Shown here piece by piece: positions 50,387-52,754 of a stretch of 64,000 bases of DNA. A model generated the notes under the pieces. That model worked only from the letters and a program-made list of their open reading frames with translations. It was not told the origin of the DNA and made no database searches. A program made the translations under genes and the position numbers. How positions within the stretch are numbered: position 1 is the stretch's first letter; each line of letters begins with the position of its first letter. Source of the stretch: a virus (Duplodnaviria; Heunggongvirae; Uroviricota; Caudoviricetes); the IMG/VR virus record IMGVR_UViG_2875703104_000004; one strand, given 5' to 3'.

Positions 50387-51696
50387 AAGAGGTGGGCTGG
50401 ACCAGCCTGTTTCAGGCGGTGGCTGAGCCTTTTGCCGGTGCCTGGCAGCAGGGTGTGAAAGCCGATCCGGAAACCGTTTTGTCCTTTCACGCGGTGTTTT
50501 CTTGCATTTCGCTGATATCCCAGGATATCGCCAAAATGCGGCTGCGCCTGATGCAGACCGATACACAGGGGATCCGCCGTGAAAAACGACAGGGGGATAT
50601 TGCCCGTCTCTGTCGTCGTCCCAATGCACAGCAGAATCGTATCCAGTTTTTTGAACTGTGGCTGAACGCCAAACTGCGTCACGGCAATACGGTGGTGTTG
50701 AAAATCCGTAACTCCCGGGGGCAGATCAAAGAACTGCGTATTCTGGACTGGAGCCGGGTTGAACCTCTGGTGGCGGATGACGGCGAGGTGTTCTATCGCA
50801 TTACACCGGACCGGAACTGCGGGATCACTGAGGCGGTGACGGTGCCTGCCAGGGAAGTGATCCACGACCGGTTTAACTGTTTTTTTCATCCGCTTGTGGG
50901 GCTGCCGCCGGTGTATGCTGCCGGGCTGGCGGCCACGCAGGGGCATCATATTCAGGAAAATTCGACGTCTTTTTTCAGAAATGGCGGCAGGCCGTCCGGG
51001 GTGATTGAGATCCCCGGCAGTATTACGGAAGAAAATGCGAAAAAACTGAAGAGCAACTGGGACAGCGGGTATACAGGCGAAAATGCGGGGAAAACGGCCA
51101 TTCTGAGCAACGGGGCAAAATACAACCCCACGACGTTTTCACCGGTGGATGCGCAGACGGTGGAACAACTGAAGATGACCGCTGAAATTGTCTGTTCGGT
51201 GTTCCGTGTCCCGGCCTACAAGATTGGCGTGGCACAACCGCCTTCCAGTGACAACGTGGAGGCGCTGGAGCAGCAGTATTATTCCCAGTGCCTGCAGACG
51301 CTGATTGAGTCCATTGAACTGTTACTGGATGAGGCGCTGGAAACGGGGGAAAACGAGAGTACAGAATTTGATGTCACCACGCTGCTGAGAATGGACAGTG
51401 AGCGGCGCATGAAAACGCTGGGGGATGCGGTGAAAAATACGCTTCTCACGCCCAATGAGGCCCGTAAACGGGAGAACCTGCCGCCTCTGGCCGGCGGTGA
51501 TGCACTGTATCTTCAGCAGCAGAACTACAGTCTGGAGGCGCTGTCCCGTCGTGATGCCCGTGAGGATCCGTTCGCGTCGACCGGGAAAACAGTTTCATCA
51601 CAGCTGCCTGACGGCGCATCTGACGGTAATAAGGCCATAAGCGAAACAGAGCGTGATGCGGTGAAGGCGATGTTCAGGGGGATACTGCGAAAATGA
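50332..51696 (+). CDS. Portal protein (HK97 family)
   Basis: 454 aa; FFRNGGRPSGVIEIPG...NPTTFSPVDAQTVEQLKMTAEIVCSVFRVPAYKIG. Confidence 0.75.
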   Translation: MWNLLRRTRKNQKSGRDVKEVGWTSLFQAVAEPFAGAWQQGVKADPETVLSFHAVFSCISLISQDIAKMRLRLMQTDTQGIRREKRQGDIARLCRRPNAQQNRIQFFELWLNAKLRHGNTVVLKIRNSRGQIKELRILDWSRVEPLVADDGEVFYRITPDRNCGITEAVTVPAREVIHDRFNCFFHPLVGLPPVYAAGLAATQGHHIQENSTSFFRNGGRPSGVIEIPGSITEENAKKLKSNWDSGYTGENAGKTAILSNGAKYNPTTFSPVDAQTVEQLKMTAEIVCSVFRVPAYKIGVAQPPSSDNVEALEQQYYSQCLQTLIESIELLLDEALETGENESTEFDVTTLLRMDSERRMKTLGDAVKNTLLTPNEARKRENLPPLAGGDALYLQQQNYSLEALSRRDAREDPFASTGKTVSSQLPDGASDGNKAISETERDAVKAMFRGILRK

Positions 51697-52754
51697 CAGA
51701 GCGTGAACTGTCCATTATCCGTGCGCTGGGTGAAGAATTCGCCACGGTGCTGGCGGATTTACAGCGCACATTTGAGGAGAAGATGGCCGCACAGTCGGGG
51801 GCGTTTGAAGAGAAACTGGCTTCCCTGTCTGCTCTGTTACAGAAGCATGTGACGGTGGATGAGGTGCGCCCTGTTCTGCAGGCGATGATGAATGACGCCG
51901 TGGGGGCCATTCCGGTACCGCGCGATGGTCGTGATTATGATCCGGAGGTGCTGCAGCAGGCGGTGAATGATGCGGTCGCGAAAATACCGGTACCGGCGGA
52001 CGGTAAAAGTGTCACTGCGGATGATGTACGCCCGATGATCGAGCAGATGGTGAAGGACGCAGTGAGTCATATCCCTGCTCCGCGCGATGGTCGTGATTAT
52101 GATCCGGAGGTGCTGCTGAGGGCGGTGAATGACGCTGTCGGAAAACTTCCGGTACCGGCAGATGGAAAAAGTATCACACCGGATGATGTGCGTCCGATGC
52201 TCGAGCAGATGGTGACGGATGCCGTGAGTCATATCCCCGTTCCGCGCGACGGTCGTGACTACGATCCGGAAGTTCTGCAGAAGGCGGTTCTGGATGCGGT
52301 GAGTGCCCTGCCGGCTCCACAGGACGGGCGTGATGCTACGGCACTGGAAATATTCCCGGCGATTGATGAGCAAAAATCCTTTCCCCGGGGCACGTATGCC
52401 ACACACCAGGGCGGACTCTGGCGGGCGTATGAAAAAACGCACGGGATGCGGGGATGGGAATGCCTGGTTGACGGGGTGGCCGATATTGACGTCAGCATGA
52501 CCGGCGAACGGTCGTTCACTGTGGTGGTCCGGCAGAGCAGTGGCCAGTGTACGGAAAAAACATTTTCCCTGCCGGTGATGCTCTATCGCGGTGTATTCAG
52601 AACCGGCGAAACCTACCACCCCGGCGATACGGTGACGTGGGGGGGCTCGTTGTGGCACTGCAACAGCATGACCGGTGATAAACCCGGAGAAGCTCATTCA
52701 TCAGGCTGGACCCTGGCTGCAAAACGAGGGCGGGATGCAGGAGGTGGAAAGTGA
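51693..52754 (+). CDS. Hypothetical head-associated protein with three ~57-aa tandem repeats
   Basis: Repeats PxPRDGRDYDPEVLxxAVxDAVxKxPVPADGKSxTxDDVRPMxEQMVxDAVSHIP. Confidence 0.5.
   Translation: MTERELSIIRALGEEFATVLADLQRTFEEKMAAQSGAFEEKLASLSALLQKHVTVDEVRPVLQAMMNDAVGAIPVPRDGRDYDPEVLQQAVNDAVAKIPVPADGKSVTADDVRPMIEQMVKDAVSHIPAPRDGRDYDPEVLLRAVNDAVGKLPVPADGKSITPDDVRPMLEQMVTDAVSHIPVPRDGRDYDPEVLQKAVLDAVSALPAPQDGRDATALEIFPAIDEQKSFPRGTYATHQGGLWRAYEKTHGMRGWECLVDGVADIDVSMTGERSFTVVVRQSSGQCTEKTFSLPVMLYRGVFRTGETYHPGDTVTWGGSLWHCNSMTGDKPGEAHSSGWTLAAKRGRDAGGGK

Follow-up and report, generated by a model that had tools for sequence, protein, structure and literature searches.

A tandem-repeat protein encoded directly after the portal gene of lambdoid Escherichia coli prophages, possibly an accessory protein of the portal

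The stretch of DNA analysed here (64,000 nucleotides, hereafter the window) belongs to a virus of the class Caudoviricetes (IMG/VR record IMGVR_UViG_2875703104_000004) and carries, directly after an HK97-type portal gene, a gene for a repeat-containing protein of 353 amino acids (aa), designated X. Positions 43693-59576 of the window were 99.99% identical to a lambdoid prophage of Escherichia coli EcPF40, and the gene order around X was HNH endonuclease, terminase small subunit (TerS), terminase large subunit (TerL), a fusion of protease and major capsid protein (MCP), small open reading frame (ORF), HK97-type portal, X, gp6-like connector, head closure, tail genes and tape measure. A separate head-region ORF of 353 aa directly after the portal had been proposed from the sequence alone, and it was found exactly at 51693-52754, its ATG overlapping the TGA of the preceding 454-aa ORF as ATGA and its own TGA overlapping the GTG of the next ORF as GTGA. 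Residues 41-420 of the portal aligned with the solved portals 9lbn (E 8e-30), HK97 8cez and RcGTA 6tba. The features of the locus are the following.

50332-51696, plus strand: portal gene, HK97 family, 454 aa (annotated as portal in EcPF40; residues 41-420 align to solved portals)
51592-51693, plus strand: C-terminal tail of the portal, aa 421-454, a flexible linker and a short amphipathic helix beyond the region aligning to solved portals
51677-51681, plus strand: run of five G (G5) in the portal codons AGG GGG, likely Shine-Dalgarno (SD) sequence of X and site of the G5/G6 polymorphism
51693-52754, plus strand: repeat protein X, 353 aa (ORF list; full-length match to PHROG 1289, E 1e-177)
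51693-51851, plus strand: N-terminal long helix of X, aa 1-53 (AlphaFold2), proposed docking element
51852-52013, 52014-52175 and 52176-52337, plus strand: three tandem units of 162 bp (54 aa), aa 54-107, 108-161 and 162-215, forming six 'amphipathic helix + PxPxDG' modules
52338-52751, plus strand: conserved C-terminal beta domain of X, aa 216-353, with all invariant columns of the family
52599-52727, plus strand: CBM5/12-like sub-domain of X, aa 303-345 (Pfam CBM_5_12; Foldseek)
52751-53077, plus strand: gp6-like head-tail connector gene, beginning with a GTG that overlaps the X stop codon (GTGA)

Each 54-aa unit of X consists of a 29-aa and a 25-aa module of the type 'helix + P-x-P-x-D-G', the basic module measuring about 27 aa, and the PxPxxG motifs begin at aa 74, 99, 128, 153, 182 and 207, with a spacing of 25/29/25/29/25. 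A single array was detected by Tandem Repeats Finder at 51918-52288 (period 162 bp, 2.3 copies, 86% matches, score 551). Units 1 and 2 were 83% (aa) and 85% (nucleotides, nt) identical in the frame of the sequence-only reading, beginning PVPRDGRDY, and adjacent units of the window allele showed 70% and 74% identity in another frame. The sequence-only reading of three diverged tandem copies was thus borne out, three complete 54-aa units being present at the protein level; the array is real, but its period is 54 aa (162 bp) and not about 57 aa (171 bp), and it spans 51852-52337 and not 51890-52320. The Cys/Trp-containing C-terminal domain described in the same reading was also located, with three cysteines (C257, C286 and C323) and five tryptophans (W243, W255, W316, W321 and W339). 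The net charge was -13 for the repeats and -17 for the N-terminus plus repeats (family median -14), and the C-terminal domain was neutral. Collagen-type G-X-Y runs were not found in the X of the window, which contains isolated DGR or DGK triplets only. An antisense ORF of 286 aa (51837-52697, minus strand) spans the repeat region; it showed no sign of being a gene and is most likely a by-product of the codon pattern of the repeats.

The number of units varies between strains, as had been supposed, from three to six in the E. coli loci fetched and in whole steps of 162 bp. In phage records and in complete genomes of E. coli, the stretches matching X were 900, 1062, 1224 or 1386 bp long, those of 900 bp being one unit shorter than the window allele. 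In 80 IMG/VR loci the X ORF had 353 aa (24 loci), 405 or 407 aa (43), 461 aa (8) or 515 aa (1), corresponding to three, four, five and six units, always with a spacing of exactly 54 aa. In alleles with four to six units, the inner units were 89-100% identical to one another, mostly ≥93%, and this near-identity suggests that whole inner units were gained or lost recently, most simply by unequal recombination. The sequence of X in the window was 100% identical in one complete genome and in four IMG/VR contigs. An assembly duplication was ruled out by the divergence of the units, by the identical copies in independent assemblies and by the whole-unit alleles. With alleles that differ by whole units across independent genomes, the locus is a variable-number tandem repeat, and the number of 162-bp units together with the G5/G6 state offers simple markers for distinguishing near-identical lambdoid prophages of O157 and other Shiga toxin-producing E. 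coli (STEC).

The AlphaFold2 model of X, obtained with a 43-sequence alignment, had a mean predicted local distance difference test score (pLDDT) of 78 and comprised a helix at residues 3-50 (pLDDT ~90), six short repeat helices (pLDDT 50-70) and a beta-rich domain at residues 220-345 (pLDDT >90). By Foldseek against the PDB, the last ~45 residues were superimposed on chitin-binding CBM5/12 modules with a probability of 1.0 and a root mean square deviation of 1.7-2.9 Å (2rts, 1.7 Å over 45 columns; 2d49, 2.1 Å over 47; 7b5h_AE, 2.9 Å over 49), and the motif Y-x-x-G-D-x-V-x-W-x-G is common to X and these modules. The Pfam CBM_5_12 score of the X of the window was 20.7 bits (E 4.4e-4), below the gathering cut-off of 26.2 bits, and 34 of the 43 relatives were matched at E ≤ 0.01 (best E 6.3e-8). 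The same Foldseek search of the PDB gave no close relative and no portal-associated chain, the closest portal entry, 9lbn, being without an X-like chain, and a sequence search of solved structures with the profile of the X family returned designed helical repeats and chitin-binding modules only. The portal domain PF04860 gave no hit to X at E ≤ 1; this domain belongs to the ORF before X and also occurs in P0253, the fused relative described below. Phage_Mu_F was absent from the Pfam hits of X at E ≤ 1 and from the hits of the 43 relatives. A conserved disulfide or metal site made up of H238, C257, H322 and C323 was considered and rejected: these residues are commonly conserved, yet C257 stays when C323 is lost, and no clear covariation was seen.

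In the window, the sequence AGGGGGA (G5) makes the portal end in ...MFRGILRK-stop, overlapping the ATG of X, and fused alleles differ by a single G (G6). The fusion junction, from portal into X, reads ...MFRGDTEKMTERE..., and NCBI entries named 'phage portal protein' read through the junction as ...AVKAMFRGDTEKMTERELSIIR... When all IMG/VR contigs were scanned for the exact patterns, G5 was present on 94 contigs, G6 on 41, and G4 and G7 on none; portal and X are fused in about 30% of relatives. Two of the 78 distinct haplotypes of the 680-nt flanks held both G5 and G6, and a neighbour-joining tree of the flanks required at least six changes of state; on this tree the switch is taken either to have recurred or to have been carried about by recombination on a very local scale. 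In phage 2851, which carries G6, portal and X form one protein of 859 aa; BP-4795, JLK-2012 and prophage Sp10 of strain Sakai have G5, the split genes of Sp10 being annotated as two 'phage portal protein' genes, ECs_1974 and ECs_1975. Both 2851 and BP-4795 are reportedly infectious, according to their original descriptions. Sp10 is reported to have all its morphogenesis genes conserved and to have been transferred to K-12, which it stably lysogenised (PMC2669165). The split form is therefore also viable, since Sp10 carries G5 and transfers to K-12. The RNA downstream of the G run, including the start of X (51680-51770), had a folding energy of -35.3 kcal/mol (z = -3.3 with respect to shuffled controls).

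Relatives of X were collected in an exhaustive profile-free scan with clusters at 50% identity, which gave 5,585 clusters at E ≤ 1e-3 and 617 at E ≤ 1e-30. The lengths of the 150 best representatives were 123-1237 aa, most of the complete ones having about 250-500 aa. No family covering X was found in Pfam or NCBIfam, and the source names of the relatives were 'phage portal protein', 'gp6-like head-tail connector protein' (Hafnia) or 'hypothetical'. The family is catalogued but uncharacterised and mislabelled, and the exact sequence of X is already present in public genomes. A fusion of X to the connector was discarded as the source of the Hafnia name, as none occurred among the 150 best representatives, nor was there an NCBIfam hit. 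The alignment of 43 members showed a variable N-terminal helix, a variable count of helix-PxP modules and a C-terminal domain that holds every invariant column.

The genomic surroundings were studied in 33 loci from species representatives of Enterobacterales, Pseudomonas, Marinobacter, Haliea, Pseudoduganella, Rhizobiales and Qipengyuania, from metagenome contigs and from two phage records, the scan of genome contigs being made with an 8-sequence alignment of the C-terminal domain. The order MCP, portal, X and connector was kept throughout. X was out of the frame of the portal in 32 of the 33 loci, overlapping its stop by 1-17 nt (in one of them a gap of 4 nt was present), and an SD-like sequence lay within the last portal codons upstream of X in these 32 split loci. 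The frame offset was -1 in Enterobacterales and Rhizobiales and +1 in Pseudomonas, Marinobacter and others; the G run serves as the SD sequence only in E. coli, other relatives having AGAGGA or GAAGGAG. From these comparisons the split arrangement is taken to be the ancestral, normal state; many E. coli genomes, including those of STEC, carry it. The remaining locus (P0253/L091; metagenome contig Ga0157359_1000002, 7001-10714) encodes an in-frame portal-X fusion of 1237 aa with the same junction, which was present on four contigs. It contains more than 20 'helix + LPxPEPLPDI' modules in an extension of ~770 aa that is kept open, and no SD sequence precedes its internal Met; extension of the portal would thus appear to be the only evident way of making X in this lineage, which is unrelated to, and whose fusion is independent of, that of the E. 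coli G6 alleles.

Two other loci deserve mention on their own account. In Symbiopectobacterium purcellii (L129, 5539-6461), a head module in HK97 order with its own connector is followed by an X remnant of 41 codons and a second connector; it was not accepted as evidence of X travelling with the head module, being a recombinant with two connector genes and the 41-codon remnant only. Rhizobium phage RHph_X2_26 (L090, 2169-3383) has an SGNH-hydrolase gene between MCP and portal, and its X homologue of 473 aa is named 'putative portal protein'.

With respect to 33 distant relatives, the median identity was 59% for the C-terminal domain of X, 56% for TerL, 52% for the portal, 50% for MCP, 39% for the connector and 39% for the repeats of X. 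The C-terminal domain evolves like a core part and probably does not serve to bind strain-specific receptors; as it is among the most conserved parts, whereas the highest variability would be expected of a receptor-binding tip, an invariant partner may be envisaged for it. All 32 related portals examined had, after the aligned region, a P/A/S/E-rich linker of ~30 residues and a terminal amphipathic helix, and the sequence class of the portal tail tracked the class of the N-terminus of X. A low, portal-like copy number of X is suggested by its coupling to the portal gene instead of the MCP gene. In solved portals (phi29, SPP1, P22, T4 and HK97), the C-terminus (crown) faces the capsid interior.

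The explanation favoured here, to which a probability of roughly 0.45 is given, makes X an accessory protein of low copy number that would sit on the lumenal side, its N-terminal helix being docked on the tail at the portal C-terminus. From the architecture, synteny, fusions, conservation pattern and repeat polymorphism observed, we infer the docking, the location and the partner as follows. Docking would occur between the N-terminal helix of X and the flexible tail at the C-terminus of the dodecameric portal, so that X would lie on the side of the capsid lumen; the repeats would form a tether, variation in its length being tolerated. For the conserved C-terminal domain an unvarying partner is proposed, which would be a conserved component of the head or else a universal glycan, for example the backbone of peptidoglycan. 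At the weakest step of the scheme, X would recruit head subunits to the portal within the procapsid or capsid and would then be trapped or trimmed by the capsid protease, which is preferred over binding of the cell wall after ejection. In phages without a separate scaffolding protein, the X family is a candidate, open to experimental test, for an accessory part of the portal vertex. The wider proposal is less likely than not: X would represent a very widespread class of virion-module proteins in HK97-type siphophages of Proteobacteria, with a fibre on the portal tail inside the capsid, a lectin-like head on a conserved component of the head or cell wall and repeated switching between free and fused forms by G5/G6 in E. 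coli, and such a fibre might assist head assembly at the portal or have a task once the DNA has been delivered.

Several observations weigh against a lumenal X docked on the portal. The build of X, with an anchor helix, a segmented helical or collagen-like rod and a lectin-like knob, is that of external phage fibres, and we know of no internal head protein of such a build. Collagen G-X-Y runs replace or flank the helical modules in some relatives (Pfam Collagen matched 5 of 43), the best longer Foldseek matches, all weak, were tail fibres of the Agrobacterium phages 7-7-1 and Milano, and the structural matches in BFVD were phage proteins with collagen repeats and CBM5/12. Binding of a glycan by X is itself uncertain, because the aromatic pair that stacks on chitin appears unconserved: by eye, the family consensus WHCxxxT is non-aromatic at the 'WW' positions of chitinases. 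Only two independent lineages of portal-X fusions were found, and the species-representative loci showing both genes always have portal and X in separate frames. Moreover, the G6 alleles of E. coli keep the ATG of X and the G-rich SD sequence; free X might still arise from them, the fusion being perhaps a tolerated by-product. The literature on virion proteomics and structures of BP-4795, 2851 and FSL SP-016 yielded nothing relevant.

The main rival, supported by the fibre-like build, the collagen runs of relatives, the tail-fibre matches and the ATG and SD sequence kept in G6 alleles, is an external fibre at the neck or head, similar to a fibritin whisker or a head fibre. X would trimerise, its N-terminal helix would be anchored outside the portal vertex, the connector or the capsid, and the CBM5/12-like knob would be displayed on a rod of variable length; the portal fusions would be tolerated accidents and free X would come from its own start codon. 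The position of X next to the head-tail connector gene, coupled to it by the GTGA overlap, and a spacer ranging from few to more than 20 modules, as in tail fibres, also speak for it. Such a fibre is judged less likely than a lumenal X: unlike receptor-binding tips, the C-terminal domain equals portal and terminase in conservation across hosts as far apart as E. coli and Rhizobium, the 1237-aa fusion without an SD sequence at its internal Met would supply X only as a C-terminal extension of the portal, which faces the interior in solved portals, and X-connector fusions were lacking among the 150 best representatives. A high-copy capsid decoration or a classical scaffolding protein would agree with a gene located in the head module, two genes after the protease-MCP fusion, with the acidic and helical, scaffold-like N-terminal two thirds of X, and with the existence of collagen-like decoration proteins (SPP1 gp12). 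This role appears improbable: X is coupled always to the portal gene and never to the MCP gene, portal fusions would set its copy number at 12, the N-terminal protease and linker of MCP could supply the scaffolding, like the delta domain of HK97, and a folded, highly conserved C-terminal beta domain is atypical of a scaffold. Decoration of the lattice, suggested in the sequence-only reading, is therefore unlikely, given the portal-gene coupling in every lineage examined and the natural in-frame portal fusions; some scaffold-like role is conceivable.

The two remaining alternatives concern the G run. If it were a recoding site, programmed frameshifting would yield both the short portal and portal-X from either allele (-1 in G5, +1 in G6). 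A -1 slip of tRNA-Gly on G5 gives exactly the fusion protein of G6, the codon that follows, AUA, is a rare one in E. coli, the run exists as G5 or G6 but never as G4 or G7, and the downstream RNA folds better than shuffled controls, with the z value given above. On the other hand, there is no X XXY YYZ heptamer, AUU takes the place of AUA in some haplotypes, and X has its own start codon and SD sequence everywhere but in the 1237-aa fusion; a conserved programmed frameshift is ruled out by the frame offset, -1 or +1 depending on the lineage, and by the restriction of the G run to E. coli, and recoding at this site is on the whole highly improbable. According to the databases, X would be the C-terminal part of the portal and the portal gene of the window would be frameshifted or defective. 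PGAP indeed calls the identical EcPF40 locus a single 'frameshifted' portal pseudogene, many NCBI proteins named as portals contain X, and two PHROG profiles point the same way: residues 1-353 of X match positions 1-331 of PHROG 1289 ('portal protein', 331 positions; E 1e-177), and X matches the last 229 positions of PHROG 2271, an 859-position 'portal protein' profile. The label stems from the fused alleles; X itself has no portal domain, the split is found in 32 of 33 diverse relatives, with an SD-like sequence ahead of the X start, and in most E. coli contigs (94 versus 41), and it occurs in the transferable Sp10 as well as in BP-4795 and JLK-2012. A defective portal is the least credible of the explanations considered, and since separate genes are the rule and are also found in a prophage able to transfer, calls of a 'frameshifted portal' for this module, and scores of prophage intactness based on them, are probably wrong.

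Long-tailed Stx1a and Stx2c phages and some Stx2a phages have the same module, as do BP-4795, 2851, YYZ-2008, 1717, JLK-2012 and the PPompW prophages. In the window, the prohead protease (Peptidase_S78) and MCP form one ORF of 673 aa at 48099-50120, upstream of the portal, whereas in HK97 they come after it; some distant relatives have protease and MCP as two genes in an unchanged position. A small ORF of 73 aa (50165-50386) lies between MCP and portal and overlaps the start of the latter, and distant relatives have an ORF of 53-82 aa at this place. Further downstream, at 59577-61475, a segment of ~584 bp in the region of the minor-tail L/K genes is present in three tandem copies relative to EcPF40; this triplication could be genuine or could have arisen in assembly. 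Upstream, at ~4.7-25 kb and 25.4-42 kb, lie two more morphogenesis modules of lambda-like type that share up to ~93% identity, the 64-kb window thus holding three prophage late regions in series. Positions 41559-41963 were 100% identical to 59789-60193 and 60957-61361, and the junction between modules therefore falls within a shared tail gene.

Among known systems, SPP1 gp7 and Mu gpF (Phage_Mu_F) are, like X, encoded directly after the portal gene; they are sometimes fused to the portal, are present in few copies bound to it inside the capsid and have a variable C-terminus. X differs from them in lacking a match to Mu F, in being paired with PF04860 portals and in having helix-PxPxDG repeats and a CBM5/12-like domain. 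They may be regarded as its nearest functional analogues, with neither fold nor sequence shared. The C-terminal helical barrel of the P22 portal is a lumenal helical extension, and the G6 fusions and the 1237-aa fusion turn X into such an extension; X is normally separate, however, with a segmented repeat spacer and a folded beta domain, and has no sequence relation to the barrel. The CBM5/12 modules of ChiC and ChiA1 (2d49, 1ed7 and 2rts) have the same fold as aa ~303-345 of X, which in contrast scores below the Pfam cut-off, apparently does not conserve the aromatic pair and carries the module inside a larger domain of 140 aa. Finally, T4 fibritin (Wac), phi29 gp8.5 and SPP1 gp12 resemble X in their N-terminal anchor, segmented helical or collagen-like rod of plastic length and C-terminal domain, but these proteins are located outside the particle, are not fused to the portal and show no sequence similarity to X, whose C-terminal domain matches the core genes in conservation.

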